Part shown: positions 27,069 through 44,720 of the stretch, piece after piece
How positions within the stretch are numbered: the first letter of the stretch is position 1
Layout: each line of letters opens with the position of its first letter
Assembly (NCBI GenBank): GCA_041650495.1
Contig: JBAZLB010000004.1
Span: 39,281 to 103,280, forward strand
DNA length: 64,000 bases
From: Candidatus Omnitrophota bacterium
Lineage (GTDB): Bacteria > Omnitrophota > Gorgyraeia > Gygaellales > Profunditerraquicolaceae
Direction of reading: 5' to 3'
The notes under the pieces: model-generated
Seen by the model: the letters and a program-made list of their open reading frames with translations, nothing else
Databases searched by the model: none
Told to the model about the DNA's origin: nothing
Made by a program: the position numbers and the translations under genes

Positions 27069-28121
27069 TTAATAGGCTTCTATTTCAGTAATCTTGCCTC
27101 TGTCCCTATAAATCCGTACCAGCTCAAGATATGGCCGAGGATCTTCCGGGCCACTCTCTATAGCTTTCTGCAGTGGCTCCTCCGCAGGAAAATATCTGCC
27201 TTGGTCGATATAGCATCTCCCCAATAGAAAATATGCCATATCATTTTTCGGATTCAACACAAGAGCCCTTTTAAGGGCATCCTCCGCTTCACGGTATCGA
27301 CCCTGGGAATGATAAAGTTGAGCTAACTCAATATATATTACATCGTAACCCGGCCTCAGTATTAGAGCTTTTTGCAGCAGCCTTTCATATTGGATATAGT
27401 CTCCTAGGTCGCGATATCCCCGCCCTAAACCAATATATTCTTCTGCCTGCTCTTTGTTGACATCTTGTGCGCCGCGCATAGAATCTCCATAACTAAAATA
27501 ATTGCCGCGCTTAATATAACTCTTACGTGGATCACTGAGGCCGGAAATGGGCGGAAACCCGTTTATCTCTTGCACGCTGGGGATCCGACAAGCCAGTTTT
27601 TTCGCCATAACATGCTCCCTCAACAGTATCAATAATTTATAGACCTTCAAAGACTGCAGATAAGAAATTATTTTATCTTCCGATGTTCGTTGGTTCACAA
27701 TATGCCTGGACCTATCGTTGATACCAAGCATCGCCACCACTATATCTGGTTTATACTTCGCAATGTTTTCTTCTAAATGCAAAGCTACATATGAAGTATC
27801 AATATCAGGAATGCCTTTATTAATTACACTAAATCTTAATCCTTTATTATTTTGATTTAATACAACTTCGAGTTGACTGGGGTAGCAACTTTCGCCGCCT
27901 ATCGCATACGCAGTCGTCGATTCCCCAACGCACATAATGCGATATGAGCTTTTCTGCTGCAGAGAAATCCTGTTTCTTCCTTCCTGTAAAGATGAAAATA
28001 TAAAACCTGCTAAACGCATCCCGGCCTCCAGAAAGACAACGCCAAGGCATATCCCTGCGATAATAAGTGCTGTCTTCTGGCAGAGAGATATAGCGGACGT
28101 ATGAGTATTATTACAGCGCAT
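27069..28121 (-). CDS. N-terminal part of a split SGNH-TPR protein (TM anchor, SGNH blocks I-III, TPR repeats)
   Basis: TM helix. Block I is IMCVGESTTAY, block III is VAMLGINDRS, followed by TPR repeats (YIGLGRGYRDLGDYIQYERLLQKALILRP...). It stops at 27069-27071, whereas the downstream TPR/SGNH-block-V ORF is open in another frame from about 27072. This suggests a frameshift (true pseudogene, sequencing error or recoding). Confidence 0.5.
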   Translation of the reverse strand: MRCNNTHTSAISLCQKTALIIAGICLGVVFLEAGMRLAGFIFSSLQEGRNRISLQQKSSYRIMCVGESTTAYAIGGESCYPSQLEVVLNQNNKGLRFSVINKGIPDIDTSYVALHLEENIAKYKPDIVVAMLGINDRSRHIVNQRTSEDKIISYLQSLKVYKLLILLREHVMAKKLACRIPSVQEINGFPPISGLSDPRKSYIKRGNYFSYGDSMRGAQDVNKEQAEEYIGLGRGYRDLGDYIQYERLLQKALILRPGYDVIYIELAQLYHSQGRYREAEDALKRALVLNPKNDMAYFLLGRCYIDQGRYFPAEEPLQKAIESGPEDPRPYLELVRIYRDRGKITEIEAY

Positions 28122-28277
28122 TGATCGCTCGATATGACAGGTCAGCCATTTGTACCACTAACAAGGCGAGAGAGATTTTCTCTTTTGTAAAGCCGATCTT
28201 ATACAGCCGAGGTCGAATAAAATTTTTGGGATTGTTGCTGTTCGGAAGAATAATGTGTAACCCCATGAAAATATATC

Positions 28278-29100
28278 CTAGCAGGCAATAAAAGGTAAGT
28301 GGAGCAATATGCTGAATAATGATTCGTTCTTAATAATCGTTCGATAGCGGTTTTTTATTAAATCAGCGTACAATTCATTGCTAAGATATCTGCGTGCATA
28401 CGTTTTATTGATGCCCGACGCCGTCCGGACGCTGGCACCACGCATATGGTACGCCACAGCATCAGGTATATAATAAGCCTTCCAGCCCATATTGTAAGCC
28501 CGCCAAGCGATATCTAAATCCTAATAAAAGAATCGAAAGTCACTATCAAAATATTCAACCCCCATTTTGAGGTCTTCCAGCATCGCTCTACGATAAAAAG
28601 CAACTGCTCCGCTTACTCCGAATATATACCCTGCGCGATTGTAAAGTTGCCCTTTTTTAGTGCCGTAGCCCCTTTCCCGGACTGAACGATACAGATTCAA
28701 CGATAATCCGGTACTATCTAACGTTATCCCGTCAAAACGAAAGACTTTGCCATCCACCATGCCAATCTTTGAGCTAACAGTAAAACCAATAATTGCTTTT
28801 TCAATAAATTTTTCATCTAAAATGACATCGTCATTAAGACAAAGAATAAAGTCCCCGTTACTCTGGCTGATTCCACAATTTAACCCTACGCAGTAGGATT
28901 TTTTCTCGGCATCCGTATACACAGTAACTTCCGGATAATGACGGTGTATGCTTTGGCTGACCTCGGGGTTACATGCATTATCAACAACGATGATTTCGTG
29001 AAAAGAGTGTGTCTGGACACATAATGAGTCTCAACATGATTCCCAGCAACGAAATGCTCCGGAGGTAACAACAATACTTACTTTCCTGTTTGAGCCTTCC
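28278..29100 (-). pseudogene. Disrupted GT2-family glycosyltransferase (three or more frame fragments)
   Basis: Three consecutive minus-strand ORF fragments in different frames. The 5-prime piece starts MTQEGSNRKVSIVVTS..., the middle piece has LNCGISQSNGDFILCLNDDVILD (DxD region), and the 3-prime piece has GWKAYYIPDAVAYHMRGAS (GT2 C-terminal motif). Confidence 0.6.
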
Positions 29101-29666
29101 TGTGTCATAGACTATAAATCTTACGATTATGTTTATTGTAGAAATGTACGCAGGCTGATCTCACTTGAAGAATCGCCTCTTCCATAAGCCCTCTGCGGCT
29201 ACCCCCGGTTTAACATATGGATATCGCTATTATCAGTAATATGCAAAAACCATGCGCTGAGAAACGTTTATGCGTTTCCGCCCCCTTCAGGATATAATCT
29301 GCCGGGAGTTGATGCTTCAGAACAAGATAAAATAAGCAGCAATATTTCAACGGGCTTACGATTATTTTACCACCAAAAACTGCATTATTAAATTAAAAAC
29401 TTTACTGAAAAGACGAGGGCACGGGAAAAATCAGAGGATTTTTACCGGAAGGGCTCAAACCGGTCCGAACTGATGAGAGGGATTATAACTACTTGCAATT
29501 ACACAAGATACATCGCTTTAAAATGAGATTGACAATAAAGAGAAAATTTTGCAGCGATCACGAAACAGGATTGTCCGTCTTGTCAGTATTTTTCTTTCTA
29601 AAATCACGTAGCTCTTTAATATGTAAACAGTAACACATTGTCTACCGCAAAAAACGGACATTTAAC

Positions 29667-30938
29667 TCATTTACTCCAAATCAACCAAACAAACAAAGAA
29701 GCAGTTATAACGGCAACAAGGGTAAACGGCAAGCCTATCTTAAGAAACTGGTTGAATTTAACAATATGCCCTTCTTTTTTTAAAATACCGCATGCGACTA
29801 TATTGGCTGAAGCGCCAATCGGCGTTATATTTCCCCCTACGCTTGCGCCGATAAGAAGACCAAATAATAAAAGCGAAGGATTAATCGCCAACCGGCTAGA
29901 CATGGAAAGAGCTACCGGGAGCATCGCGGCGAGAAAGGGGACATTGTCTATAAAGGCAGAAAAAAGAACAGCAAAAAAAACAAACATGACATAGCCGAGT
30001 AATAGGTTTATCCCCACTAAACCAGACAAAAACTTTGAAAAATAACTAACCCAGCCATTAACAGTAAGCGCCCCCACAATAACAAATACTCCCACCAAAA
30101 ACAAACTCGTATCCCAATCTAATGATCTGATACTTTTTAATATAAATCCCCGTTTGAAAAACTTCTCGTAGGATAACGATGCTATCCCAAATAGCATACA
30201 AATCAATCCCCCCATATAACTGAATCCGGTATCAAAAAAAGATGAAATTGCCAAAGAAAAAATCATAAGAAGTAAAATAAACGTAGGGACCCATGATTTC
30301 ACCTGCTCTGTTTTAAGCAGCTGCGTTCTTTCCTTGTGGCGCCTAAATATAAAATACAACACAACAAAAGATGCTATCGCGCCTAATTCAACGGCAAAAA
30401 AGATACTTGGTCTTCCCCTATAGACAAAAAAATCCATAAAATTCATTTTGGCAAAACCACCCAGAAGCATACTTGGGGGGTCCCCGATCAACGTAGCCGC
30501 ACCCTGAAGATTGCTCGAAATAGCAACCCCGATCATTATATTCATAGGATTGATCTTTAGCTTATGAGATAAAGTAAGCGCAATAGGAGCAACGATTAAA
30601 ACTGTCGCCACATTTTCTACAAAAGCAGAAATAAAACTAGTGAGCACGCATATAGCTACCATAGCCCAGGCGGTATTTCTTGCACGGTTAACAATTATTT
30701 CTGCAATATACGCCGGTACTCTGCTTTCCATAAAAGTATCCGCAACAACCAATGTGCCAATAAATATCCCCATGACGTTCCAATTAATCGCCCCCAAGGC
30801 TTCTTGGAAAGTAACGGCCGTGGTTACCACAAGTAGGATACTTGCCCCAAAAGCAACAAAAGACCTTCGGGCAGGGAATACCACAAATAAAATGTAAGCT
30901 GTCAGGAAGACTGCTAATGTAAGGATACTTTTATCCAT
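29667..30938 (-). CDS. ArsB/NhaD-superfamily anion permease (CitMHS/ArsB-like transporter)
   Basis: 423 aa with about 11-12 TM helices. Internal motifs ISSNLQGAATLIGDPPSMLLGG and GASVGGNITPIGASANIV are typical of the ArsB/NhaD permease fold. Confidence 0.6.
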   Translation of the reverse strand: MDKSILTLAVFLTAYILFVVFPARRSFVAFGASILLVVTTAVTFQEALGAINWNVMGIFIGTLVVADTFMESRVPAYIAEIIVNRARNTAWAMVAICVLTSFISAFVENVATVLIVAPIALTLSHKLKINPMNIMIGVAISSNLQGAATLIGDPPSMLLGGFAKMNFMDFFVYRGRPSIFFAVELGAIASFVVLYFIFRRHKERTQLLKTEQVKSWVPTFILLLMIFSLAISSFFDTGFSYMGGLICMLFGIASLSYEKFFKRGFILKSIRSLDWDTSLFLVGVFVIVGALTVNGWVSYFSKFLSGLVGINLLLGYVMFVFFAVLFSAFIDNVPFLAAMLPVALSMSSRLAINPSLLLFGLLIGASVGGNITPIGASANIVACGILKKEGHIVKFNQFLKIGLPFTLVAVITASLFVWLIWSK

Positions 30939-30949
30939 AATACTGTCAA

Positions 30950-31096
30950 TTACTGGTTTGTTTCGGAAGGTTTATTTTGCTCTTTCTTATTCTTCTTATC
31001 CTGCATATTACCTTTTACAATTACATACCCAAAAAAGAATACTATAACACCTAAAAACACATACACCGGCCAATCCTGCCATAAGTTTCCAGTCAT
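30950..31096 (-). CDS. Small membrane protein, 48 aa (MTGNLWQDWPVYVFLGVIVFFFGYVIVKGNMQDKKNKKEQNKPSETNQ)
   Basis: Not in the ORF track (<60 aa). Strong RBS (GAGGAGG 8 nt upstream of ATG). One TM helix plus a Lys-rich tail. It sits between rnfA and the permease and ends 12 nt before the permease start. Confidence 0.4.
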   Translation of the reverse strand: MTGNLWQDWPVYVFLGVIVFFFGYVIVKGNMQDKKNKKEQNKPSETNQ

Positions 31097-31131
31097 ACTT
31101 AAAACCTCCTCATTAGTCTAGTCCGCTTGAA

Positions 31132-31740
31132 CTAAAATTTGAAACCATTAAACCCCATAAATGCAAGGCTCATTATAGAAGCAATGATAAATGCCAAAGG
31201 TAAAATCTTGAATGCCTTGGGCGGATTACAAAGCTCAAGCCGCTCCCTAATACCTGACATCAAAAGCATGGCCAGGGTATAGCCTATCCCAACGCATAAT
31301 CCCTGGAATACCGAAAATATGAAGCCCCCGGATACTGTCTTACTGTTTACAAAGAACATATCGACATTGAGAACCGCTACGCCTAATACGGCGCAGTTCG
31401 TAGTAATCAAAACAAGATAAATACCGAAGGCGCGATAAAGAGCGGGGCTCGTCTTTCTTATTATCATTTCCACCAGTTGCACAAAAGCAGCAATGATTAG
31501 GATAAAGACTAAGGTACGCAAATATGTCAATTGAAACGGGATCAAAAGAAACTTGTAGACTAACCACGTTATAGCAGAAGATATTGTGGTTACAAACGTA
31601 ACTGCCATACTCATCGCAAACGCCTGCCTTGTGTCTTTAGATATGGCGACAAAAGGACACAGTCCCAAGAAACGCGACAGAATAACATTGTTAATAAAAA
31701 CTGCTGAAATAAAAATAGTTAAAAGCTGCGCAGAATTCAT
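31132..31740 (-). CDS. rnfA: Rnf/Nqr family membrane subunit, RnfA/RsxA-like
   Basis: 202 aa. FLGLCPFVAISKDT...TNCAVLGVAVLN...SLAFMGFNG closely follows the RnfA/NqrE consensus (FLGLCPF, TNCAVLG, LAFMGF). No other rnf genes are in the window. Confidence 0.8.
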   Translation of the reverse strand: MNSAQLLTIFISAVFINNVILSRFLGLCPFVAISKDTRQAFAMSMAVTFVTTISSAITWLVYKFLLIPFQLTYLRTLVFILIIAAFVQLVEMIIRKTSPALYRAFGIYLVLITTNCAVLGVAVLNVDMFFVNSKTVSGGFIFSVFQGLCVGIGYTLAMLLMSGIRERLELCNPPKAFKILPLAFIIASIMSLAFMGFNGFKF

Positions 31741-31744
31741 TTTC

Positions 31745-31873
31745 TTACTTTTTCATGCCATTTAATCTTGCTTTTTCATTTCTTGCCTTTATATTGTTCC
31801 TAGTAGTAAACAGCAGTGAGAATAAAATCGCAAGAACAATAACCCCTAACTGTTCTAATATGCTCGTTGACAC
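31745..31873 (-). CDS. Small membrane protein, 42 aa, GTG start (VSTSILEQLGVIVLAILFSLLFTTRNNIKARNEKARLNGMKK)
   Basis: AGGAGGGG RBS 5 nt upstream of GTG. One TM helix. The stop lies 4 nt before the rnfA ATG. It is missed by the ATG-only ORF track. The overlapping plus-strand ORF 31755..32048 is rejected. Confidence 0.35.
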   Translation of the reverse strand: MSTSILEQLGVIVLAILFSLLFTTRNNIKARNEKARLNGMKK

Positions 31874-32147
31874 AGGCCCCTCCTATTTTCTAAGTCGATT
31901 TAATGTCTTGGAATCTTTCCCGCCCAGGCCTTTTCTAAATATCCTGCTGAAACAAAATATCAGCATACTCAAAATAAATGTCCACGAGATTATCATGAAT
32001 ATCCATCCGCTTAATTTCAATCCACACCCCCTTCATCGGATATTATGAGTAATCGCAAAAGCCACACACAATATCCCAGTTGAAATACAGACTTCCATTA
32101 TAATAAATATAACCGCCTTCCTTTATCCATGCCTCTCCTTTATTAAT

Positions 32148-32228
32148 AAAAAACCGCCACCTGACTTTAAAAGCCAGATGGCGGCCCGACCATCCAAGTC
32201 CTCCGGAAATATACCCTTCCGGACCCTT
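32148..32228 (-). terminator. Conserved two-hairpin element, copy A; distal hairpin plus U6 is an intrinsic terminator for treT
   Basis: Minus-strand RNA: hairpin UCCGGAA-GGGUAUA-UUCCGGA, then conserved core GAUGGUCGGGCCGCCAUCU, then hairpin CCGCCAUCUG/CAGGUGGCGG (10 bp with 1 G-U) followed by UUUUUUAUU. Confidence 0.7.
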
Positions 32229-32313
32229 GCATTAACAAGAAAACCGCTATGTGATAACTTTTAAACGATTTTCAGCGGTTGGAATTCCAGTTTTTGAAAT
32301 TCCATGCTATGAA

Positions 32314-33528
32314 TTAACAGAGATGAACGATATCTTCAGGATGATATAACGAAAGAAACAATAACATATAATCTCTTAAATGACGCGTAATCAGAAAATT
32401 ATTTTTTATATGCTCCCGACCGTTCTCTCCCAGTTTCTTGGCGTATTCGGGACTACTTAACAGCTGTTTTATGGCAAAACTGGCCCCCTCAACAGAATGG
32501 CACAATAATCCTGAATATTTATGTTTTATTTGCAAAGGGATGCCTCCCACATTTGAAGCAATAACTGGTTTTGCTTTCCATAAGGCCTCTGCTACGGTTA
32601 AACCAAAGCCCTCCCGAAGAGACTTTTGGATAATTACATCCGAAGACCTTTGCAACGCATTAACCTCTATATCATTATGAGGTAATAGTAAAATATGGAT
32701 ACCGGGGTCGTTCTTAGCTTTTTCTCTGACTTCACCGAGGACCTTGAATCCTTCCGGGTCATCCCCTGCGGTGCCGCCAGCCAACACCAGCTGGCAATCA
32801 GTATATTTTTTTACCTGCAGGTATGCTTCAATTACGCCTATCGGATCCTTTAGACGGTCAAAGCGGGATACTTGGGTGATGATCGGCTTATCTTTTTTGA
32901 TATTATATTTTTTCAAGACCGCATCTATTGTTTCCTGAGGCAATTCTTTGTTTTTATCGCTTAAGGGGTCAATGGAAGGAGAAATTAGAAATTGCCTAAT
33001 GGGTAATTTCCGGGAAAAGGCAGGGGCAGAAAACACTGCGGAATCGTATTGAGTGATAAAATCCATAAGAAATCCCCAGACCCTTTCATCAGGATTAGAT
33101 ACGTCAATATGGCAGCGCCAAAGCCATTTGTTAGCGGCTTTCTTTTTTATCAGGGCTATTGGCTGCGGGTCATGGACAAAAACTATATCTCCATAGGTAT
33201 CAACATTATCGATATTCTCCCGGCTTGTCTGCATAAATATCTCAAAATCTCTTTGAGTTATTTCTTCGGCCTTGCCGTGTAAGGCGTTATGAAACTTCTT
33301 TGTCACATCAAAGAACTGCTCTCCGCCTTTTATGACGTCCCATTTCGTATCTACGCCTAATTCCACGAGCAGCGGGACCATACGGTTCAATATCTCGGCA
33401 ACTCCACCACCTACAGGAGTAGAATTTATATGCTGGATAACCTTGCCTTTTAACCGCTCGCCAAGCAATCTTAAATCGTCAATAATAGACTGCCCTACCA
33501 AAGGAATATATTTTTCTATCTCTGTCAT
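32314..33528 (-). CDS. treT: Trehalose synthase (nucleotide-sugar:glucose trehalose glycosyltransferring synthase, GT4)
   Basis: 404 aa. HINSTPVGGGVAEILNRMVPLLVELGVDTKWDVIKGGEQFFDVTKKFHNALHG matches the conserved TreT N-terminal block. The C-terminus has the GT4 E-x7-E region. Confidence 0.7.
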   Translation of the reverse strand: MTEIEKYIPLVGQSIIDDLRLLGERLKGKVIQHINSTPVGGGVAEILNRMVPLLVELGVDTKWDVIKGGEQFFDVTKKFHNALHGKAEEITQRDFEIFMQTSRENIDNVDTYGDIVFVHDPQPIALIKKKAANKWLWRCHIDVSNPDERVWGFLMDFITQYDSAVFSAPAFSRKLPIRQFLISPSIDPLSDKNKELPQETIDAVLKKYNIKKDKPIITQVSRFDRLKDPIGVIEAYLQVKKYTDCQLVLAGGTAGDDPEGFKVLGEVREKAKNDPGIHILLLPHNDIEVNALQRSSDVIIQKSLREGFGLTVAEALWKAKPVIASNVGGIPLQIKHKYSGLLCHSVEGASFAIKQLLSSPEYAKKLGENGREHIKNNFLITRHLRDYMLLFLSLYHPEDIVHLC

Positions 33529-33529
33529 T

Positions 33530-34201
33530 TTATTGCGAAATTCTTCTTTCGATTATTTGGATAATCGTTTTCCTTAAATCCTCTAAAGTGCGCGTATAGG
33601 GGTCAAAGCCGGCAATAGCATCTCCCAATTCTTTATCGCCTAAAGAATTCTCTATCCAAAACGAGAAGTCATTGGTTGGTTTCTCAAGCCTAAGCCGCGC
33701 CTCAAAAATATGAAAATAAATCGAATCTATGGTGATTTTCTTCAGGATATCCGCAAATTCCTTTAAATCATAGGCAGTATAATTTTTCGGCAGAATAAAA
33801 CTGACTGATTTGATAAAATGGAATTCTTCTCCGGGACGCGCGAATTTTAATTTGGCAAATGAGCTGCCGCTTAAATATTCCTCAATAGTTTGCGCGATCT
33901 TGTCCCGCAGGCTGCGTATAGTTGAATATTGCATAGTGTCAATGCTGGCTAATTTTTCTCCGAGCTCATCTTCTCCCAGGATATCCGTTACCCAATATGC
34001 AAAGTCATTCGGGGGTTCGGGAGAAAGATATTGGTGTTGTTGCAAGAATCTATGGGTGTGGTGATAGATGCATGAACCAGGCACTTCCTTAATAAGAGCC
34101 AACAATTGGCCCAAGGTGGCGGCTCGTAATCCAGTCAGCTCTGACAAGTGCAATCTCGTGCAAAACCTAAATGGCTCTTTGGTTCTTATTAATTCTGTCA
34201 T
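33530..34201 (-). CDS. Hypothetical protein with internal duplication, co-clustered with trehalose genes
   Basis: 223 aa. Two ~90-aa repeats: NDFAYWVTDILGEDELGEKLASIDTMQYSTIRSLRDKIAQTIEE and NDFSFWIENSLGDKELGDAIAGFDPYTRTLEDLRKTIIQIIE. Its stop lies 2 nt from the treT start. Confidence 0.5.
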   Translation of the reverse strand: MTELIRTKEPFRFCTRLHLSELTGLRAATLGQLLALIKEVPGSCIYHHTHRFLQQHQYLSPEPPNDFAYWVTDILGEDELGEKLASIDTMQYSTIRSLRDKIAQTIEEYLSGSSFAKLKFARPGEEFHFIKSVSFILPKNYTAYDLKEFADILKKITIDSIYFHIFEARLRLEKPTNDFSFWIENSLGDKELGDAIAGFDPYTRTLEDLRKTIIQIIERRISQ

Positions 34202-34203
34202 AA

Positions 34204-35073
34204 TTAGTTATGTTTTAAGTCCAATATTAAACGTAAAAACCGAGTTACCTCTTCCGGGCCCTTCAGGTAATAGCCCGCCTTGGAGCTACCCGGCTCTCCC
34301 ACAAATACCGTCAGCCCTTTTCTTTTTAATACCTTAAAAGCGTCTTCATCGGTTACATCGTCTCCTATATACACAGGAAAAACCATTTTTTTCCCCAAGG
34401 CGGATTGCTGCCTTGTCAAAAGCCATAAGACAACCTTACCCTTATCCCATTCAACAGGGGGTTTTATCTCATAAACCTTTTTACCGGGATTAACCTTTAT
34501 CTTATCGCGCACTATATAAGGGGTAGTGACTTCGGCAATGATCTTCTCAAACGCAGGCAGATCTTTTTTGGCGACTAAACGATAGTGGATACTTAAGGTT
34601 AATCCTTTGTCCTCAACCAACGCGCCTTTGATGCCTGAAATCTGCTTTTGTATTTCCGCGGCAATATTCCGCATAATTGATTTTAACCGCGGGGAAACCT
34701 GGCTTTCAAATTTCATCTTTGGACCTTCGATTTCCAGGCCGTGGTTACCCGCATAAATAACGCCTTCTATCCCCATAACATTCTTTATGTCCTCCAAAGA
34801 CCTGCCGCTGATAATGCCTAACTTGCAATAATCACTTCTGGACAGCTTCTGCAATAATTCTTTGGTTTCTTTAGAGATAACTGCCTTCTTAGGGTCTTCT
34901 ACAATCGGGGTTAATGTCCCGTCGTAATCCAACAAAAGTAAAATAAAATTACTACATAATTGTTCATTTATTTTACTAAATTTAGTAAACAAATACTCCA
35001 CGCTTAAACCCCGCTCCTGCCTAACTAAACCTTCTTCAATGCTGTTAATTCCGTGATTATGTTGCCCGCCCAA
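34204..35073 (-). CDS. otsB: Trehalose-6-phosphate phosphatase (HAD family)
   Basis: LLLDYDGTLTPIV (HAD motif I DxDGT), K...GDDVTDEDAF (motif III). 289 aa. Confidence 0.8.
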   Translation of the reverse strand: MGGQHNHGINSIEEGLVRQERGLSVEYLFTKFSKINEQLCSNFILLLLDYDGTLTPIVEDPKKAVISKETKELLQKLSRSDYCKLGIISGRSLEDIKNVMGIEGVIYAGNHGLEIEGPKMKFESQVSPRLKSIMRNIAAEIQKQISGIKGALVEDKGLTLSIHYRLVAKKDLPAFEKIIAEVTTPYIVRDKIKVNPGKKVYEIKPPVEWDKGKVVLWLLTRQQSALGKKMVFPVYIGDDVTDEDAFKVLKRKGLTVFVGEPGSSKAGYYLKGPEEVTRFLRLILDLKHN

Positions 35074-37262
35074 CGATAAATATTATTTTCGGCAATGGTC
35101 TTCCTCATATTCTCCATACGTTTTTTCTTTTCATCCGGGGGCATTTCAACGGATACATTTATAGCATCGGCAAATTCTTCGATTGCATAAGGATTGAACT
35201 GGACCGCATCAGTCAATTCCCGGGCGGCGCCTGTAAACTGGCTTAAAATAAGCACGCCGGATAGATCTTTTTTTGTAGCCACGTATTCTTTAGCAACAAG
35301 ATTCATCCCGTCATCCAGAGAGCTAACCAGACAAAAATCAGCCATTTTGTAAAAAGGGATAATCTCATCGGCAGAAAAATGCTTCTTAAGATAAATGATC
35401 GGTTTCCAGCTCCCGTCCATATGTTTCCAGTTTTTCTTTTCAATCAGCTCATCGATCTCTGCCATAAGGTCGTGGTAACGCTTAATATGGACACGGCTGG
35501 GCGCGGCCATCTGGATAAAAACTACTTTTTTCTTATAGTGGGGGTATTTTTCAAAAAATCTGTCAATGGCAAGCACCCGTTCAATAATGCCTTTTGTATA
35601 ATCAATCCTATCCACCCCAACGCCGATAATCTTGTCTTCTAATTCAAATTCGGTTTTAATCTTCGCTATCTGCTTGTCCAAATCCGGCATCCCAGCTTCC
35701 TTATTCATATATCCGTTAACGCTGATAGGGAATGCCCTGATAAAAGTTTCCTTATTTAACCTGACAACGCTGAATTTTTCCGTGTCTACCCTTGACTCAA
35801 GGAGCCTGTTTGCCGTATCCAAGAAGTTATTGCAGTGGTTCTGCACATGAAATCCCACCAAGTCACAACCAAGCATTCCGTCTAAGATTTCTTTGCGGTA
35901 AGGGCATATGGAAAATGACTCTGGGGTCGGCCAGGGGATATGCCAGAATAAAGCGATAGTGGCATCAGGTCTTTTTTCTTTAATTATCCTGGCTAAGAGC
36001 GTAAAGTGGTAATCCTGAATAAACACAAAAGGGTCCTTAACAGGCAATTCCTCTAACAGGCTATCAGCAAACTTTTGGTTTACTTTTTTGTAGACATTCC
36101 AATCCGCTTCTCTAAAAATAGGACGCGTATGCGTATTGTGACAAAGCGGCCACAGCCCTTCATTGGAAAAACCGTAATAGTAACCATCCTCCTCTTCCTT
36201 ATTCAGCCATACTCTCTTTAAAATATAGCGGTTATCTTCTGGCGGGACACCAAGCTTATTTTTTGAATTTACAAATTTTCTGTCTGCATTACCGGCGCCA
36301 TGGGCTATCCATGTCCCTCCGCAGGCGCATAGAATCGGATGTATAGCAGTGACAACACCGCTTGCCGGTCTTATACACTTAGTTATCCCCGTGACCTCGT
36401 CTATAACATGCATATACGGTTCCCGGTTCGAAACTACAAATAATGCGTTCTCGCCCAACTTTGCATTAACGAGGTCTCTTAATTTTACTTCTGTCCATGT
36501 CTCTTCTTTTTGCAGCCGCGCAGACGCTTCATCAGAAATTGTCCTGCGGGCGACCCTAAGGCTCAATGCCACCTGTTCTACTTCGCTAGCAAGTTTACCA
36601 AGTTCTCCCCTTTCTTTGATCGGATGGAAATCATCGGTTTCTCCTCTTTGAAAATGTTCAAACCAGGCTGTCAAACGCTGCAGGGGAATAGCAAATATCT
36701 GCTGATGCAGAAAAATTGCTATAATAAAGATTATTATCACCAGGACTATGAGCGTTGCACTGATTCTCTTCCATAGCTCTGTCAATCGGGTAAATACGTA
36801 AGAAGTATCATATACAACTTCGACTAATCCCAAAACCTGCCCTTCGTCGTCTGTTATGGGGAGGATATAGCTATAAACGGTATAACCTTTAAATTTCTCC
36901 AGTTCACCTCTGGGGGTCTTGTTTAACAACAAATCTTTCAGATAAGGCTTCTCTTTTTCTTTCCAGTCATTGAAACGTTTAGTAATGGCCATGATGTTTC
37001 CGTCTTTATCGTATAAAACACATCCCTGCAGCCTTTCCCGTGTCTCGAATTTTTCGGCAAGGTAATTGGCATTTCTCATGTCTTTTGCAAAGAAGATACC
37101 CTTCGCCGATAACTCCATGCTTTCTGCGATGTGTTTGGATTTACGCTTCAAATCATCGATGAGCCTCTCTTCTTCAAAGCGGACTTGGAAGTAGCCAAAA
37201 AGGGTAAAGGCCGCGGCAACAACGATGAGGATAGGTAAAATAAATAACAAAATGCGCCTCAT
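35025..37262 (-). CDS. otsA: Membrane sensor-HAMP domain fused to trehalose-6-phosphate synthase (GT20)
   Basis: 745 aa. TM1 (res 5-25), ~140-aa extracytoplasmic region, TM2 (LIVLVIIIFIIAIFL), HAMP-like segment (IPLQRLTAWFEHFQRGETDDF...LASEVEQVALSL), then the OtsA core (NEGLWPLCHNTHTRP, ...ILSQFTGAA...). Confidence 0.75.
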   Translation of the reverse strand: MRRILLFILPILIVVAAAFTLFGYFQVRFEEERLIDDLKRKSKHIAESMELSAKGIFFAKDMRNANYLAEKFETRERLQGCVLYDKDGNIMAITKRFNDWKEKEKPYLKDLLLNKTPRGELEKFKGYTVYSYILPITDDEGQVLGLVEVVYDTSYVFTRLTELWKRISATLIVLVIIIFIIAIFLHQQIFAIPLQRLTAWFEHFQRGETDDFHPIKERGELGKLASEVEQVALSLRVARRTISDEASARLQKEETWTEVKLRDLVNAKLGENALFVVSNREPYMHVIDEVTGITKCIRPASGVVTAIHPILCACGGTWIAHGAGNADRKFVNSKNKLGVPPEDNRYILKRVWLNKEEEDGYYYGFSNEGLWPLCHNTHTRPIFREADWNVYKKVNQKFADSLLEELPVKDPFVFIQDYHFTLLARIIKEKRPDATIALFWHIPWPTPESFSICPYRKEILDGMLGCDLVGFHVQNHCNNFLDTANRLLESRVDTEKFSVVRLNKETFIRAFPISVNGYMNKEAGMPDLDKQIAKIKTEFELEDKIIGVGVDRIDYTKGIIERVLAIDRFFEKYPHYKKKVVFIQMAAPSRVHIKRYHDLMAEIDELIEKKNWKHMDGSWKPIIYLKKHFSADEIIPFYKMADFCLVSSLDDGMNLVAKEYVATKKDLSGVLILSQFTGAARELTDAVQFNPYAIEEFADAINVSVEMPPDEKKKRMENMRKTIAENNIYRWAGNIITELTALKKV

Positions 37263-38317
37263 TTTTCACCTCTTTCCTGGCTGTAATTCATAGCCCTGAT
37301 AGGATAGGGGATAACAATCCCTTCCTTTTTATAGCGCTCCTGAAGCCTCTTGATAAATTCATGCTTAACCAGGTACTGATCCACAAATTCTTTAGCCCTC
37401 AATATTACGGTAAGATTGATACCAGAATCTCCGAAACTGCCATACCTAATAAAAGGCTCGCATTCTGGCACTCCCCCCGGCACATTGTCCATTACTTCTT
37501 TCGCGACTTCGCAGGTAACTTTTTCCACGCGCTTCAGATCGCTCTTATAATGGACGCTTAAATTAACCAGCACTGCCATTGCCTTATCCGGCAAGTAGTA
37601 GTTAGTAACGGTTGCCTTGGTTAACTTCTCATTAGGCACCAAGATAACATTATTAGGCAGCATCTTTATCTTGGTAGTGCGCCAAGTGATATCCGTAATG
37701 TATCCTTCCTCTCCTGAGTCTAGTCTTACATAATCGCCGATTCTAACTTGTTTGGATATAATAATATGAAATCCCGAGAAAAGATTGGAAAGCGTGTTTT
37801 GTAAAGCTAAGGCAACCGCAATGCCGCCTACTCCTAAAGTAGCCAGTATCGGTGTAATAGAAATTCCTAGGCTGTGCAGGATAATTAAGATCCCGATAAT
37901 GAATACAAGTATCCGGCTAATGTTTTGCGTAAGGGAAGTAACTGGTAAAGCAGCCTCGATTTTACTGGAATATACACTAACTAATTTAGCCGAGATATTA
38001 GCCAAGACAAAGGTAATAGAAAGAACGCCCAGGACAAGCAAGAGTTTATCTATTACATGTACTAGATTTTCCGGCAACCTTGAAAACTCGAGAGCAAAAT
38101 AAATACCCAGCATTAAAAACCAGACTATGAACGGCCCTTTTATTGAATCTATAATAACATCGTCAACTTTGGTCTTGGTATGTTTTGACCAGCGGCTAAG
38201 GCGGGCAAAAACAATCTTTCTTACAATAAACCCGCAGAGCAAGGTTATAAGACATACCCCCAGCGGCACTAAGGTTTTAAATAAATTCTCGATAGAAAGG
38301 ATTGAAATAATATTCAC
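37259..38317 (-). CDS. Small-conductance mechanosensitive channel (MscS family)
   Basis: 352 aa. Three N-terminal TM helices plus the conserved MscS pore/beta region (GIAVALALQNTLSNLFSGFHIIISKQVRIGDYV). Confidence 0.75.
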   Translation of the reverse strand: MNIISILSIENLFKTLVPLGVCLITLLCGFIVRKIVFARLSRWSKHTKTKVDDVIIDSIKGPFIVWFLMLGIYFALEFSRLPENLVHVIDKLLLVLGVLSITFVLANISAKLVSVYSSKIEAALPVTSLTQNISRILVFIIGILIILHSLGISITPILATLGVGGIAVALALQNTLSNLFSGFHIIISKQVRIGDYVRLDSGEEGYITDITWRTTKIKMLPNNVILVPNEKLTKATVTNYYLPDKAMAVLVNLSVHYKSDLKRVEKVTCEVAKEVMDNVPGGVPECEPFIRYGSFGDSGINLTVILRAKEFVDQYLVKHEFIKRLQERYKKEGIVIPYPIRAMNYSQERGEK

Positions 38318-38338
38318 TTTATTGTCCCTTCAGAAATC

Positions 38339-38419
38339 AAAAACCACCACCTGCATTCATATGCAAGATGGCGGCCCGACCATCTTAAAAATAACCTCTG
38401 GAGGCAGCTATCTCCAGAC
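38339..38419 (-). terminator. Conserved two-hairpin element, copy B; terminator downstream of the tRNA-Val/tRNA-Asp unit
   Basis: Same architecture as copy A, with an identical 19-nt core (gatggcggcccgaccatc on the plus strand). The flanking hairpins are conserved in structure with compensatory changes (UCUGGAG/CUCCAGA; CCGCCAUCUUGC/GCAGGUGGUGG), followed by UUUUUGAUUU on the minus strand. Confidence 0.65.
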
Positions 38420-38702
38420 CACTTATTATCTTAATCGTTGCAGATATCATTATACATCAAACAGGCACTTTTACAATCTCCTTGTTATCTTAGATTACAA
38501 GGCGTTTGTTTGTTCCTCATCAACCCTGTTATTCTTTGATATCAAAGGGGGTAAGAACTTATTTTCCGATTATTTTCTATAAAATCTTACGGCCAAATTG
38601 TGGCCGGCCGGGGACCAAAAATATGCTAAGATGCCGCCTATCCCCATGATTATCTACAAACAGGAAATCCCCGAAATTGCTTACGGGGATTAGTGTTATA
38701 TA

Positions 38703-38778
38703 CGGGCCCGACGAGATTTGAACTCGCGGTCTTCAGATCGACAATCTGACGTGCTAAACCAGACTGCACCACGGGCCC
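38703..38778 (-). tRNA. tRNA-Asp (anticodon GTC)
   Basis: Manual cloverleaf: GGGCCCG acceptor stem, D-arm GCAGTCTGGTTTAGC, anticodon stem-loop TCAGA-TTGTCGA-TCTGA (GUC), T-arm GCGAGTTCAAATCTCGT, discriminator G. The 3-prime CCA is not encoded. Confidence 0.85.
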
Positions 38779-38862
38779 GAACAGCAGGATATAGATTTTA
38801 AGCTAAAGTCCTGTTTTTTGCAACAGTTATTTACCCCTAGCTTAAACACTCAAAAATTTCTA

Positions 38863-38937
38863 TGGGCGGTACAGGACTTGAACCTGTAAACCTCCTGAAT
38901 GTAAGTCAGGCGCGCTAACCAATTGCGCCAACCGCCC
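38863..38937 (-). tRNA. tRNA-Val (anticodon TAC)
   Basis: Manual cloverleaf: GGGCGGT acceptor, D-arm GCGCAATTGGTTAGCGC, anticodon stem-loop CCTGA-CTTACAT-TCAGG (UAC), T-arm CAGGTTCAAGTCCTG, discriminator A. CCA is not encoded. Confidence 0.85.
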
Positions 38938-38950
38938 GGAAATATTCTAT

Positions 38951-38979
38951 ATTATATACTCAGCCGGTTCGTAAGTCAA
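38951..38979 (-). promoter_or_regulatory. Sigma70-type promoter for the tRNA-Val/tRNA-Asp operon
   Basis: Minus strand: TTGACT (38979-38974), 17-bp spacer, TATAAT (38956-38951). The predicted TSS is about 7 nt downstream, immediately before tRNA-Val. It lies just after the atpD stop codon. Confidence 0.7.
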
Positions 38980-38980
38980 T

Positions 38981-39601
38981 CTAATGGCTGCGGACAATCT
39001 CCTTGACCCGCATCAGGCGCACAAGATTGCCGCGTTCAAATTCATTCAGTTTCTGGGTAATATAGCGGATGGTATCCTGTATGGAGGGAATAAGTATATA
39101 CTCCAGGGCATTCACCCGGCGGCGGGTGCGTTCAATTTCATAAGAGAGAATATCCAGGGTCTTTACAAGCTGCGCCAGTTTTAAGAGTGATTGTATATAA
39201 TCCCTGGCCTGAGCTACTGCCATATCCAGCTGGGCTGAGGCCTTGAAGAAATCATAGCCCTTTTCTATTTTTATCTTCTGTATGTCAAATACAGGGACCT
39301 TGACATTCATAACCCTTCTGGTATCTACTTTAATGTCGATATCGGAATTGATTTTTGCCAAAGAACCCACAAAATCTACGGATGAACTGCTAACACGAAA
39401 ATAAAGCAGGTCCCGGAAAATCCCCCTGGTGCGTGACATAAAATCCTCTTTGGAATAATGGATATCTTTAACCAGAGACAGGAACCGGCGCATCATCTCT
39501 TCAAGTTTATCCTGCAGGAGTTTATGCCCCCTTTGCGCAAGCAGAAGCCTGCGCCTGAGCCGGAGCAATTCCATCCTGTTGGGATTGACACGCAGTATCA
39601 T
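38981..39601 (-). CDS. atpD: A/V-type ATP synthase subunit D
   Basis: 206 aa, coiled-coil rich, [29 protein letters not shown] is typical of V-type D. It is the last gene of the operon and overlaps atpB by 4 nt. Confidence 0.8.
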
Positions 39602-40974
39602 CGTTTTCCTTCATAATATTTATCCAGGTATTCTTCCCTGATACGCTTCAATTCCTGCCGGGGAATTAAACGTAAAAGCCCCCATCCCGTATCCAGGGTC
39701 TGAATGATAGAGCGCTCCTCGGATTCTTCCTGCCGGACGAATTTATCCTCAAAACCGTCGGCGAATTTTAAATAAAGTTTATCCAAATCCGAGAGGGCTG
39801 CCTCACCCAGGATCACCGCCAGTTCCCTGGATTCTTTGCCTTTAGCATAGCAGGCAAAGAGCTGGTTTAAAACATCGGAGTGGTCCTGGCGGGTCTTGTC
39901 TTTACCAATGCCTTTGTCTTTGAGCCGGGAGAGGCTGGGCAAAACATCTACCGGCGGATATACCCCCTTGCGGTGCAATTCGCGGGAGAGCATAATCTGG
40001 CCTTCGGTAATGTATCCGGTCAAATCCGGTATGGGGTGGGTTTTATCATCCTCAGGCATTGTTAATACCGGCAGGAGGGTAATAGAGCCGCTCTTACCTT
40101 TAATGCGGCCCGCCCTTTCATAAAGGGTAGATAAGTCCGTATAAAGATACCCTGGATAACCCCTGCGGCCGGGAATTTCCTTGCGGGCAGCGGAAACCTC
40201 GCGCAAGGATTCACAATAAAATGCCATATCAATAAGTATGACCAAGACATGCATATCCAAATCAAAAGCCAGGTATTCGGCACAGGTAAGCGCAAGGCGG
40301 GGGGTAGAGATTCTCTCTATCGCAGGGTCATTGGCTAAATTTATGAATAAAACGCTTCTCTCAATGGCGCCGGTATTGCGGAAATCACGCATAAAGAAAT
40401 CCGCCTCTTCAAAGGTAATCCCCATAGCCCCGAAGACAACCGCGAAGCCTTCATCTTTACCCAAAACCTTAGCTTGACGGGCAATCTGGGCGGTGAGTTG
40501 CGCATGCGGCAGGCCCGAGGCAGAAAATATAGGAAGTTTCTGCCCGCGGACCAAAGGGTTCATCCCGTCAATGGTAGAGATGCCGGTTTGAATAAACTCC
40601 GAAGGATATGCCCGGGCGCTGGGATTAATGGGGCTGCCGTTGATATCTATCCGTTTATCGGCGATAACCTGCGCCCCGCCGTCGCGGGGACGGCCTGCGC
40701 CGTTAAAGATACGCCCGATTAAATCCCGTGATACGGATAATTCCTGCGTGCGGCCTAAGAAACGCACCTTGGAATCTGCTATATCCATACCGATAGTCCC
40801 CTCAAACATCTGCACCAGGGCCTTATCTTCATAAACCTCAAGGACCTTCCCCCGGCGGGAATGGCCGTCTGAGAATTCAACTTCCACAAGCTCCGCGTAT
40901 TTAATATTCTCGGTTTTCTCCACTATCACCAGGGGCCCGGAAACCGAAGTAACAGTATGGTATTCTCTAATCAT
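39598..40974 (-). CDS. atpB: A/V-type ATP synthase subunit B (regulatory)
   Basis: 458 aa. The P-loop-like region is degenerate, as in B subunits. The [10 protein letters not shown]...[22 protein letters not shown] block is conserved. Confidence 0.9.
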
Positions 40975-42709
40975 ATGCGCTCCTTAACTCTTCTTCTAAC
41001 CTATCGAATTCTCCTGAGGCTTCCTCAGGGATATATTTGACCCGGCTTATCCTTTCCCGCAACGGCATCTTTACGATATCGTCAAACTCCAAGCCCTCTT
41101 TAAGCCTTATTTTAGCGAAGGAATGAAACCCCATGATTATCTTTAACATACGGTATTGCTTGGCCAGAGAGGTATAGGTATCCACTTCATGAAAGGCATT
41201 CTGATGCAGGAAATCCTCACGGATAGATTTGGCAGTCTCTAAAACCAGGCGGTCGTCAAACGAAAGAGACTCCACCCCCACCAGGCGGGCAATTTCCAAT
41301 AACGAAGACTCCTCCTCAAGCAGACGCATTGCCTCCTGCTTTAAAGAAATGAATTCTTCGGCAATATTCTTATTTAAGAACTCTTCCAGGCTGGTGTGGT
41401 AAAGGGAATAGCTCAACAACCAGTTGATGGCCGGGAAATGCCGGGCATTGGCTAATTTATCATCCAGCCCCCAAAAGACCTTGGCTACGCGCAACGTCGC
41501 CTGCACTACCGGATCAGATAAGTCCCCTCCCGGAGGAGAAACCGCCCCCATAATGCTTAATGCGCCCTGACGGTTGTCGCTGCCTAAACAGGTAACTTTT
41601 CCGGAGCGTTCGTAAAATTCCGCCAACCGTGAAGATAAATAGGCAGGGTAGCCTTCCTCCCCCGGCATCTCTTCGAGCCTGCCGGAAATCTCACGCAATG
41701 CCTCTGCCCAACGGGAGGTGGAATCCGCCATCAAGGCAACGGAATAGCCCATATCGCGGAAATACTCAGCAATAGTAATGCCCGTATAGATGGATGCCTC
41801 CCGGGCTGCCACCGGCATATTGGAAGTATTGGCAATGATAACCGTGCGCTCAAGCAGGGGACGGCCGGTGCGCGGGTCCTTCAATTGCGGAAAACTTAAA
41901 AGCAGGTCAGCGCATTCATTGCCTCTTTCTCCGCACGCCACATAAACAATGACCTGCGCGTCAGACCACTTAGCCACCTCATGCATAGTAACCGTCTTGC
42001 CTGCGCCAAAAGGCCCGGGGATACAGGCTGTGCCCCCCTTGGCAATAGGAAAGAAGGTATCAATGACCCTCTGCCCCGTGGTCAACGGCTCATCAGGGGC
42101 GAATTTTTCCTGGATAGGCCTGGCCTTTCTTACTGACCAGCGCTGCGACATAAGAATATCCTTGAATCCCTGGCTTGTCTTGACCCTGGCCACTGCCTCC
42201 CGTATAGTAAAATCACCTGCGCGTATATCCACTACCTCGCCGGTTATCCCGGGGGGGACCATAACCTTGTGTTCAATCAAAGCTGTCTCCTCAACCACTC
42301 CCAGTATATCTCCTGAGACAACTTGCTGACCCATAGAGGCCTTGGGCTTAAAATGCCACTTCTTCAGGGCGTCTAATCCCGCAATATCAATCCCGCGCGG
42401 GATAAAATCACCGCAAGACTGCATAATAACATTCAGGGGGCGTTGTATGCCGTCATAAATAGAATTAATCAAGCCGGGGCCCAATTCCACGCTTAAAGGT
42501 TCGTTAGTCAAATAAACCGGCTCCCCTGGGCCTATGCCAGAGGTCTCTTCATATACCTGTATGTAAGCCAGGTCGTTTTTAAGTTCCACGATTTCACCGA
42601 TTAATTTCTTGGCGGAAACCCGCACCATATCATACATCTTAGCGCCCTTACAGCCGCAGGCGACTACCAAAGGCCCGGATACCTTGATGATCTTAGCTTG
42701 TTTTGTCAT
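40967..42709 (-). CDS. atpA: A/V-type ATP synthase subunit A (catalytic)
   Basis: 580 aa. Walker [31 protein letters not shown], and the non-homologous insert region typical of A subunits. Confidence 0.9.
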
Positions 42710-43038
42710 TATAATGCTCCTGTGGCTCTTATTTGAATGCCCTTAACCATCTTATCCAAAAAATCCGTCCCTCCGTCTTTAGAAAAAGGAATAAAAATCG
42801 GAAGGGGCATTTTTTTATAACTGTTTATCCTCTCTTCCTGCGCCTGGTATATATTATCCTGCACCAGGCATACCCCGGTCTGGTTATTGACTATATCTTC
42901 CAGCGCCTTCTCAAACTGTGGTATTTCCTTGGCGGTATAGACCTTAAAACCCAGGGCAGAAAAACCCAAGACTATATCCTCATCCCCGATAATCGCCAAG
43001 GCATTGCCTACAACAAATCCTTCAGGCATAGACGGCAT
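42709..43038 (-). CDS. atpF: A/V-type ATP synthase subunit F
   Basis: ~109 aa. The start is set at the ATG preceded by AAGGAG (7-nt spacer), internal to the longer track ORF 42709..43065. It lies between atpC and atpA. Confidence 0.7.
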   Translation of the reverse strand: MPSMPEGFVVGNALAIIGDEDIVLGFSALGFKVYTAKEIPQFEKALEDIVNNQTGVCLVQDNIYQAQEERINSYKKMPLPIFIPFSKDGGTDFLDKMVKGIQIRATGAL

Positions 43039-43822
43039 TGATCCGCTCCTTAAGCAGTCCCACATCCAGGTTATTAAGTTTGGCCAATATAGTCATGCGG
43101 ATTAAATTTATCTCATTGGCCCTGGCAAAATAATAAGCCAGCACCGGCTCCGGGCCAAAAGTAAAATACTTAGCGGGCTTAAGGGCCCCTATCAATAAAC
43201 TGCTCATTGCTTTCTCTAAGGCAATGAAGGATTTTTTCTCTACCGCCTGGTTTATACCCCCCCTTAAAACCGAGGCGTAATCCAGGGTCTCATTGCGTTT
43301 ATGCACATATTCCAGCCTATGCATAAAAACCGCTAAGTCCTGGCTGTAAAGCCTAATAAAATCCCCTTTGGGGATGAACCCTGCGCATTGGATAACTTTA
43401 TAAAGTTCATCCAATGGTTCTTTTAAAACATAAAGGCGCAGGAAACTCTTAATATTATGCATGTCTATTACCTGGCTTAAATAGTCTTCCAGAAAGTCAC
43501 TGCGGTAATGCTCTAAGGCGCGTTTTAAACAGGGCAGGTCATTTAATTCCAAAAGCCCCAATAGCCGCTTATCCAAAAGCAGGCTGCCGATGAGGTCCTT
43601 TAAACCGGCTGATTCCTGAGTTAATATCTCTTCCAGGCGGCGGCTGTCCCGGACATGTAAAAGCTCATCGCTATAAAGGCCTGACTCGGCAAAAAGCCTT
43701 AATGCCTCATCCAAAGCGGATTCCACTGCCTCAATAAACACCTCCTGCTTAATCAAAAACCTCTCCAGCGCCCTGATCTTTGCCACGGCAAAGGTATAAT
43801 TTAAAGGCGATATCCCGCTCAT
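43022..43822 (-). CDS. atpC: A/V-type ATP synthase subunit C (d-type central stalk)
   Basis: 266 aa, all-helical, placed between E and F as in the canonical atpHIKECFABD order. Confidence 0.7.
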   Translation of the reverse strand: MSGISPLNYTFAVAKIRALERFLIKQEVFIEAVESALDEALRLFAESGLYSDELLHVRDSRRLEEILTQESAGLKDLIGSLLLDKRLLGLLELNDLPCLKRALEHYRSDFLEDYLSQVIDMHNIKSFLRLYVLKEPLDELYKVIQCAGFIPKGDFIRLYSQDLAVFMHRLEYVHKRNETLDYASVLRGGINQAVEKKSFIALEKAMSSLLIGALKPAKYFTFGPEPVLAYYFARANEINLIRMTILAKLNNLDVGLLKERINAVYA

Positions 43823-44229: not shown

Positions 44230-44233
44230 ATGA

Positions 44234-44707: not shown

Positions 44708-44720
44708 ATCACCCTCCTTC

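Follow-up and report, generated by a model that had tools for sequence, protein, structure and literature searches.

Whether a bacterium can place trehalose synthesis under the direct command of a transmembrane receptor is the question raised by one gene in a 64,000-nucleotide stretch (the window) of contig JBAZLB010000004.1 from a Candidatus Omnitrophota bacterium. Bacterial trehalose synthesis is understood to be controlled mainly at the transcriptional level (e.g. through RpoS), through ions or allosteric effectors that act on soluble OtsA, or by partner proteins, as in Thermoproteus tenax and in yeast. The known OtsA enzymes, which are trehalose-6-phosphate synthases of family GT20, are soluble, cytoplasmic and under transcriptional or allosteric control. 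In the protein encoded here, the OtsA part is preceded by a predicted transmembrane helix (TM1), a periplasmic sensor domain, a second transmembrane helix (TM2), a HAMP domain and a helical stalk (Table 1). The domain analysis supports an architecture in which a transmembrane receptor has a catalytically competent OtsA as its output. We consider it fairly probable that the protein is a receptor-enzyme, in which an external cue switches the synthesis of trehalose 6-phosphate (T6P) post-translationally, and the cue is most plausibly osmotic, desiccation or envelope stress.

A sensor module and a synthase in one reading frame

The fusion gene starts with ATG and continues through a single intact frame of 745 codons. 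A Shine-Dalgarno-like sequence, AGAGGTGA, lies just 5' of the start codon. The ATG shares four nucleotides (ATGA) with the stop codon of the upstream mscS gene, an overlap that suggests translational coupling between mscS and the fusion gene. The identical 745-residue protein was found on a 172-kb ENA contig, on an independent Logan assembly and on JGI contigs, and it is deposited at NCBI as MFA5090212.1, 'MAG: trehalose-6-phosphate synthase [Candidatus Omnitrophota bacterium]'.

A search with the full-length sequence returned more than 120 homologue clusters, 745 residues long, at 76–92% identity, each of which covers 100% of the query. When residues 1–272 were searched against 1.8 billion representatives, 578 relatives were found, and nearly all matches that reach beyond the module run on into GT20. 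In a scan of GTDB with one genome per species, at least 406 species genomes contain a relative, and the best 80 loci were used for comparison. The 80 loci belong to Omnitrophota, Acidobacteriota (Terriglobia, Acidoferrales), Elusimicrobiota and Syntrophus/Syntrophaceae, with further members from Nitrospirales, Ignavibacteriaceae and Gemmatimonadota bins. By tblastn, at least 79 of these loci carry GT20 immediately 3' of the N-terminal module, and one uninterrupted open reading frame (ORF) spanning both parts could be extracted from 75. Because the same protein occurs in independent assemblies and module and enzyme adjoin in all but at most one of the loci, the fusion is real and does not result from a mis-join of two genes. 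A preliminary description of this locus, made from its letters, had placed about 270 residues in front of the OtsA core. This is borne out by the 272 residues that precede GT20 strand 1 in one intact ORF. The concern that a separate ORF had been joined to the enzyme by mistake is removed by the intact copies in independent assemblies and hundreds of species, and the same fusion, proposed to be sought in relatives, is present in them.

A Kyte-Doolittle scan of the protein revealed two strongly hydrophobic 19-mers only, at residues ~4–26 and ~167–190. With the N terminus inside, about 140 residues lie outside and the remainder inside, in agreement with the topology proposed earlier. The AlphaFold2 (AF2) model of residues 1–272 has a mean predicted local distance difference test score (pLDDT) of 84.9, and the sensor region has a pLDDT of ~85–92. 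The modelled sensor consists of a long N-terminal helix, comprising TM1 and the periplasmic N-helix, and a five-stranded PAS-like antiparallel sheet. A single helix (residues 154–205) connects the sensor by way of TM2 with HAMP helix 1, of which it is a part.

No Cache-family Pfam model scores above its gathering threshold on the fusion protein. The values were 22–26 bits versus 45 for dCache_1 (E 1e-5), 17–21 bits versus 28.4 for sCache_3_2 (E 5e-4) and 15–19 bits versus 25.7 for dCache_3. Precomputed annotations of PF17203, PF14827 or PF02743 are present on some homologues. A profile of 15 diverse fusion N termini (A1) was used for a further homologue search, which returned mostly contig-end fragments; these provided precomputed HAMP and Cache annotations and alignment rows for AF2. 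Compared with the PDB, the family profile matched the WalK extracellular domain 5is1 (E 6.6e-6) and DcuS (E 0.011). The structural comparison with Foldseek, using the model of residues 1–272, gave as top PDB match the full-length Bacillus subtilis WalK model 9a5d_A (E 4e-12, 260 columns), followed by the Staphylococcus aureus WalK extracellular domains 5is1, 4ywz and 7dud (E ~1e-6, TMt 0.68–0.77) and by KinD, CitA and DcuS (E ~1e-4).

The nearest relatives of the N-terminal module outside the GT20 proteins are sensor kinases, in which HAMP at residues ~186–238 is followed by HisKA and HATPase_c, and two GGDEF cyclases (P0147, P0154). In these kinases the HAMP domain is significant by Pfam, and its position matches that in the fusion. 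Kinase models align to the N-terminal ~245 residues of the fusion protein only, and neither a HisKA/DHp nor an HATPase_c domain was found in it with Pfam or NCBIfam. Judged by its domain content, the fusion protein is not a histidine kinase. Its N-terminal module is a WalK-like unit of TM1, sCache/PAS domain, TM2 and HAMP without the kinase core. In one relative from a Logan contig (P0140, 913 residues), the periplasmic domain is duplicated in tandem before TM2, HAMP and GT20, and the repeat is made of two ERL...RER...Y.Y..P...HDASYI units.

When the full-length protein was compared with Pfam, no HAMP match was obtained at E ≤ 0.1. Excised segments gave 14.3–16.8 bits (E 0.009–0.05), with profile positions 9–52/53 falling at residues ~193–236. 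As Pfam was sub-threshold on the fusion protein, transitive and profile evidence was used. The fusion-family profile aligned by hhalign with HAMP-positive kinases over 279 columns through TM2 and HAMP (99.9%, E 2.9e-32). One fused homologue (P0224) exceeds the Pfam HAMP cut-off with 26.5 bits, two of 15 diverse family members match Pfam HAMP at E ≤ 0.01, and PF00672 is among the precomputed annotations of several close fragments. Matches of the family profile to HAMP structures in the PDB were weak (Tsr TM2-HAMP, E 0.03; Af1503 HAMP, E 0.13).

Conservation and spacing were analyzed on a set of 76 full-length sequences. In this set the HAMP motifs include P193 (100%), G207 (93%) and the invariant residues W200 and E227; the ELGKL motif comprises residues 221–225. 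AF2 predicts a helix to residue 205, a 14-residue loop at 206–219 and a second helix from 220. This fits the canonical HAMP layout of ~50 residues, in which a Pro opens helix AS1, a Gly closes it and E-[LI]-G-x-L begins AS2. The HAMP-like linker of the preliminary description was not recovered by Pfam on the single sequence, which stays below the cut-off, but profile-profile comparison, the homologues above the cut-off, the motifs and the predicted fold all speak for the domain.

Residue A238, at the end of HAMP beside the stalk, is invariant. In the AF2 model the stalk is continuous with the second HAMP helix from residue 220 to 250/252. After a break at 251–257, a helix formed by residues 258–268 leads to GT20 strand 1.

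The GT20 domain is matched by Pfam Glyco_transf_20 (PF00982) at residues 274–740, with E 9e-121 and 404 bits versus a cut-off of 32.5, covering profile positions 3–472/473. The NCBIfam equivalog models for OtsA gave strong scores below the equivalog cut-offs (TIGR02400, 418 vs 565). The closest PDB entry by sequence is 5jij, the OtsA of Mycolicibacterium thermoresistibile (E 4.5e-81). The AF2 model of the domain superimposes with Foldseek on 5jio (E 7e-33, TMt 0.86) and has the two Rossmann domains of a GT-B fold.

The substrate and catalytic set of Escherichia coli OtsA, which we take to be R9, the Gly loop, W40, Y76, W85, D130, H154, R262, K267, R300, D361 and E369, was located by pairwise alignment with the K-12 enzyme. 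All of these columns are identical in the fusion, where the counterparts are R280, G302, W318, Y361/362, W371, D417, H441, R552, K557, R590, D651 and E659. The motifs retained are the VSNR Arg, the Gly loop, W, YY, W, DYH, HIP, RxDYxKG, SR and DGMNLVAKE; the sole change is a Ser in place of the first Gly of the GG loop. On these residues the GT20 part looks like an active synthase and not like a degenerate regulatory domain. PF00982 and the sub-threshold PF00672 occur in one protein that has no receiver domain and no histidine kinase domains. This is consistent with the one-component arrangement proposed earlier, in which sensor and effector share one chain.

Proposed coupling of the receptor module to the synthase

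Between the two main clades of the family, the N-terminal modules are only ~25% identical and the GT20 domains ~53%, and GT20 identity is 50–58% even to distant clades. Although its identity drops to ~25%, the module has been retained whole by at least 406 species genomes from several phyla, among them members of Omnitrophota, Acidobacteriota, Elusimicrobiota and Syntrophales. Twelve residues in HAMP and stalk are conserved in at least 93% of the sequences (P193, W200, G207, E227, A232, A238, R239, A246, R249, W256, T257 and L261), and the residues with 100% conservation cluster in these two regions. The conserved residues recur at intervals of seven, as in A232-R239-A246 and R249-W256.

The spacing between landmarks is nearly fixed. 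From D152, at the end of the last sensor strand, to P193 there are 41 residues in 76 of 76 sequences, from E227 to W256 there are 29 in 74 of 76, and from W256 to N279 of the catalytic loop there are 23 in all 76. Variation in length is confined to the HAMP connector, from 33 to 39 residues. Near-invariant spacings at ~25% identity point to mechanical coupling. Pairwise identities in the N-terminal half and in the GT20 half are correlated with r = 0.94, which indicates that the module and GT20 evolve as one unit and suggests that the fusion arose once. As read from the alignment, conservation and spacing would be those expected of a rigid signal transmitter and are hard to reconcile with a passive anchor.

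For the working of such a receptor-enzyme we propose the following scheme. The protein is probably a homodimer at the inner membrane. A stimulus, most likely osmotic, desiccation or envelope stress, would be perceived by the periplasmic domain or by the membrane itself, and the signal would run down the continuous helix from the sensor through TM2 to HAMP helix 1. HAMP would convert it and hand it on to helix 2 and the short coiled-coil stalk, and from there to the W256-T257...L261 helix. This helix, placed 23 residues before the catalytic VSNR Arg and the Gly loop of the GT20 N-domain, would move and thereby alter how the acceptor is bound, how the GT-B domains close or how the two catalytic domains are arranged. 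The outcome would be a post-translational switch of T6P synthesis. OtsB would then convert the product to trehalose, the MscS channel of the same operon would be placed for solute release on downshock, and the OrfY-like and TreT-like proteins may form a second trehalose route.

Several observations weigh against this scheme. The fusion protein does not reach the PF00672 gathering score of 25 bits. Conserved polar residues of the periplasmic domain are few (E76, Y84 and D152 among the 76 sequences), so that a ligand pocket is not evident. In the AF2 monomer, the break at residues 251–257 takes the place of an unbroken helix into GT20. Transmission into a globular GT-B fold is mechanistically obscure, and we know of no precedent for HAMP transmission to a GT-B enzyme. 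In distant clades, e.g. Acidobacteriota, there is no MscS beside the fusion.

The last of these points bears on the nature of the stimulus. Instead of an osmotic signal, the receptor might be gated in the manner of a chemoreceptor by a periplasmic small molecule such as a sugar, an organic acid or a cue from a host or partner, with trehalose serving as carbon store or signalling metabolite. The absence of MscS linkage from distant clades would suit this, as would the fold, since the sCache/PDC class (CitA, DcuS, KinD, Tlp3) typically binds small ligands. Host-dependent lifestyles are also proposed for Omnitrophota (PMC10066038). The closest match in structure and sequence is WalK, however, and its extracellular domain does not belong to the classical binders of small ligands. 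The operon contains a mechanosensitive channel together with two trehalose routes, and in T. tenax such a pattern is tied to stress protection. We regard gating by a small molecule as somewhat unlikely.

Alternatively, the module might be a passive anchor or scaffold that carries no signal and only tethers and dimerizes a constitutive OtsA at the inner membrane, for example near MscS or transporters, with regulation that is purely transcriptional. In favour of an anchor are the scarcity of invariant polar residues that would mark a ligand site, the AF2 hinge between stalk and GT20, and the fact that a HAMP-regulated GT-B enzyme is not known to us and was not found in the literature search. In contrast, a folded sensor of 140 residues and a HAMP domain are superfluous for anchoring. 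P193, W200, E227, A238, A246, W256 and L261 are invariant and the spacings exact at ~25% identity across phyla, and every one of the module's closest relatives is a signalling protein. We judge a passive anchor to be unlikely.

A non-catalytic GT20 that acts as a sugar-phosphate-binding regulatory domain, like the plant class II trehalose-6-phosphate synthases, or else signalling that runs from the inside to the outside, is highly improbable: nothing specific speaks for it besides the Ser that replaces the first glycine in the GG loop of E. coli OtsA, whereas every other donor, acceptor and catalytic position is conserved, otsB is directly next in most loci, and the identity to distant clades is enzyme-like.

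That assembly or annotation wrongly joined two genes can be dismissed, as the few split versions in databases are either a pseudogene (L084/L085) or located on an error-prone long-read contig (L086), and the joined protein recurs across independent samples and assemblers. Two seemingly stand-alone sensor genes on long contigs (P0122 and P0323) were considered as a natural two-gene version and ruled out. In one case residues 248–322 are deleted and the frame is shifted, as seen in two samples; in the other, the gene is on contig L086, where otsB is fragmented too. The deletion at L084/L085 (positions 5001..6994) is found in one Omnitrophota lineage and removes the stalk and the catalytic N-terminal strands. 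An ENA sample and an independent JGI sample share the identical lesion, which indicates a fixed pseudogene and not an assembly error.

The trehalose gene cluster and its surroundings

The fusion gene is part of a tightly packed, co-directional unit of mscS, sensor-otsA, otsB, a DUF5752/orfY-like gene and treT. The positions of these genes and of the other features are listed in Table 1.

Table 1. Features of the sensor-otsA locus; positions are numbered within the 64,000-nucleotide window, and aa denotes residues of the encoded protein.
Feature	Position	Strand	Basis
Sensor-HAMP-OtsA fusion, whole gene, 745 aa	35025..37262	-	ORF list, same protein elsewhere, homologue clusters
TM1 (aa ~4-26), cytoplasmic MRR before it	37185..37253	-	Kyte-Doolittle 19-mer mean up to 2.99; AF2 helix 2-48
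Periplasmic PAS/sCache-like sensor domain (aa ~28-165)	36768..37181	-	Sub-threshold Cache Pfam, WalK profile match, AF2 fold
TM2 (aa ~167-190)	36693..36764	-	Kyte-Doolittle mean up to 3.34; within continuous AF2 helix 154-205
HAMP (aa ~191-238): AS1 from P193, connector 206-219, AS2 from ~220 (ELGKL...)	36549..36692	-	hhalign, homologues, conservation, Foldseek
Helical stalk and pre-catalytic helix (aa 239-272; invariant A246, W256, L261)	36447..36548	-	AF2, conservation, spacing
GT20 domain (aa 273-745), catalytic residues intact	35028..36446	-	Pfam, PDB profile, Foldseek, E. coli OtsA alignment
MscS-family mechanosensitive channel	37259..38317	-	Pfam MS_channel 1st/2nd/3rd domains
otsB, trehalose-6-phosphate phosphatase, probable GTG start 35001; longest ORF to TTG 35073	34204..35001	-	Pfam Trehalose_PPase E 3.5e-48, TIGR00685
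DUF5752/OrfY-like protein	33530..34201	-	Pfam DUF5752 E 2e-67; PDB 4cso T. tenax OrfY E 2e-20
TreT-like GT4 trehalose synthase	32314..33528	-	Pfam TreT_GT1 E 1e-54 and Glycos_transf_1; NCBIfam TreT E 4e-110, below equivalog cut-off
Terminator-like hairpin, 17-bp stem and T-run, end of five-gene unit	32151..32187	-	Consensus scan only
Promoter-like site 5' of mscS, 10/12 match	38449..38476	-	Consensus scan only
tRNA-Asp(GTC) and tRNA-Val(TAC), between V/A-type ATPase operon and mscS	38702..38937	-	Upstream boundary of trehalose unit
Complete V/A-type ATPase operon (I, c, E, C/AC39, F, A, B, D), directly 5' of trehalose unit	38981..~46742	-	

In ~20 of ~45 Omnitrophota-type loci, an mscS gene either directly precedes the fusion or separates otsA from otsB. 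The MscS homologue of the window has 352 residues, of which Pfam recognizes the channel core at residues 132–336 only. This leaves an N-terminal extension of ~130 residues, presumably with extra transmembrane helices.

For otsB, gene callers applied to the identical contig choose the GTG codon as start, giving a protein of 265 residues that begins 23 nucleotides past the otsA stop codon and 3' of an AGGAG sequence. The TTG codon has no ribosome-binding site. The 49-nucleotide overlap of otsA and otsB reported in the preliminary description depends on that TTG and is doubtful. The two genes are co-oriented and closely packed, and their co-transcription is likely.

The DUF5752 gene is paired with a TreT-like GT4 gene in most related loci, across phyla, and its product may be a partner or a regulator of TreT. 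The homologous PDB entry 4cso (T. tenax OrfY) is labelled 'transcription factor'. The protein is internally duplicated, with the motif NDF[AS][YF]W...LG[ED].ELG present twice.

In most Omnitrophota loci the fusion is followed by otsB, DUF5752 and treT, as it is in Syntrophus, in Elusimicrobiota and in many loci of Acidobacteriota. Conservation of this neighbourhood of mscS, otsB, orfY-like gene and treT strengthens the link to osmotic stress, and the content of the operon fits an osmotic-stress module. Promoter-like sites found in the consensus scan were no more numerous than the shuffled expectation.

Across the window (1..64000), 46 of 48 ORFs of at least 150 residues are on the minus strand, an extreme strand bias. 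The other two, on the plus strand, overlap genes of the minus strand and look spurious. In the 30–42 kb stretch that was profiled, GC skew is negative throughout. At 7821..20981 on the minus strand there is a tandem array of eight radical-SAM genes, of which three encode SPASM domains and two encode B12-binding domains; a GDSL lipase gene and an ORF of 577 residues without a Pfam match break the array. This run could be a cluster for peptide, lipid or glycan modification.

Relation to known systems

The GT-B fold of family GT20, the catalytic positions and the adjacent otsB are shared with soluble OtsA, as represented by the enzymes from E. coli (PDB 1gz5/1uqu) and M. thermoresistibile (5jij/5jio). 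These have no membrane or sensor module, whereas in the fusion a TM-sensor-TM-HAMP-stalk unit of 272 residues precedes strand 1. With WalK (YycG) and other HAMP histidine kinases the protein shares TM1, an extracellular PAS/Cache domain, TM2 and HAMP, and the NCBIfam WalK model matches residues 4–245 (E 1e-8). In contrast to these kinases it has no DHp/HisKA domain, no HATPase and no phosphorelay, and its stalk enters a glycosyltransferase where a kinase has the DHp helix.

Input, HAMP and an enzymatic output are also united in one chain in HAMP-GGDEF cyclases, in HAMP class III adenylate cyclases such as Mycobacterium tuberculosis Rv3645 and in HAMP-PP2C phosphatases. Those outputs make or destroy signalling molecules and are obligate dimers over a helical interface. 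The output of the fusion is, in contrast, a GT-B enzyme of primary metabolism that makes the precursor of a compatible solute. To our knowledge, a metabolic enzyme of this fold as HAMP output is unprecedented.

The gene content resembles that of the msc-gt-tpsp operon of T. tenax, where a mechanosensitive channel, a GT20 synthase, a T6P phosphatase and a GT4 protein are co-located, and T. tenax OrfY (4cso) is homologous to the DUF5752 protein described here. Kouril et al. are said to have reported in 2008 that treT and orfY form one operon in T. tenax. In T. tenax, synthase and phosphatase form one fused protein; here the fusion partner of the synthase is a membrane sensor, and a separate gene encodes the phosphatase. 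Activation of the T. tenax synthase is post-translational and occurs via a complex with a soluble GT4 partner, and in the stress model for this organism, trehalose is made under stress and exits by the channel on relief (PMC3634074).

Full-text searches of 8 million papers and preprints found no OtsA or trehalose-6-phosphate synthase joined to a HAMP, Cache or transmembrane sensor, a negative that holds for this set and does not extend to the literature as a whole or to InterPro architecture tables; one Ramlibacter hit proved irrelevant, and the searches returned nothing on DUF5752. In public databases the fusion family is annotated as plain 'trehalose-6-phosphate synthase', and one automatic IMG name (P0076) reads 'trehalose-6-phosphate synthase/HAMP domain-containing protein'. 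The fusion, which joins OtsA to the design of a HAMP receptor-enzyme, is no new kind of system but an uncharacterised, widespread variant. Evenly balanced in our view is the further proposal that this is the first described class of HAMP receptors with a GT-B glycosyltransferase as output and that, together with MscS, it constitutes a self-contained operon for turgor control (an osmostat).

If the receptor-enzyme reading is correct, direct wiring of a sensor to OtsA would mean that compatible-solute synthesis is regulated by a new principle, with a fast response at the level of the enzyme that bypasses transcription and second messengers. It would add a GT-B metabolic enzyme to the known HAMP outputs, which are kinases, chemoreceptors, cyclases and phosphatases, and it raises the structural question of how a glycosyltransferase of two Rossmann domains is controlled by rearrangement of a helical bundle. 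Because the output is an easily assayed enzyme, the family is directly testable by heterologous expression, and it would make a convenient reporter for HAMP mechanics. The family is abundant in uncultured phyla of groundwater and sediment and in soil Acidobacteriota, where tolerance of desiccation and osmotic stress matters ecologically. Its conservation in hundreds of mostly uncultured bacterial species suggests that synthesis of trehalose, a stress-protective sugar, may in these organisms be switched on directly by an external signal.

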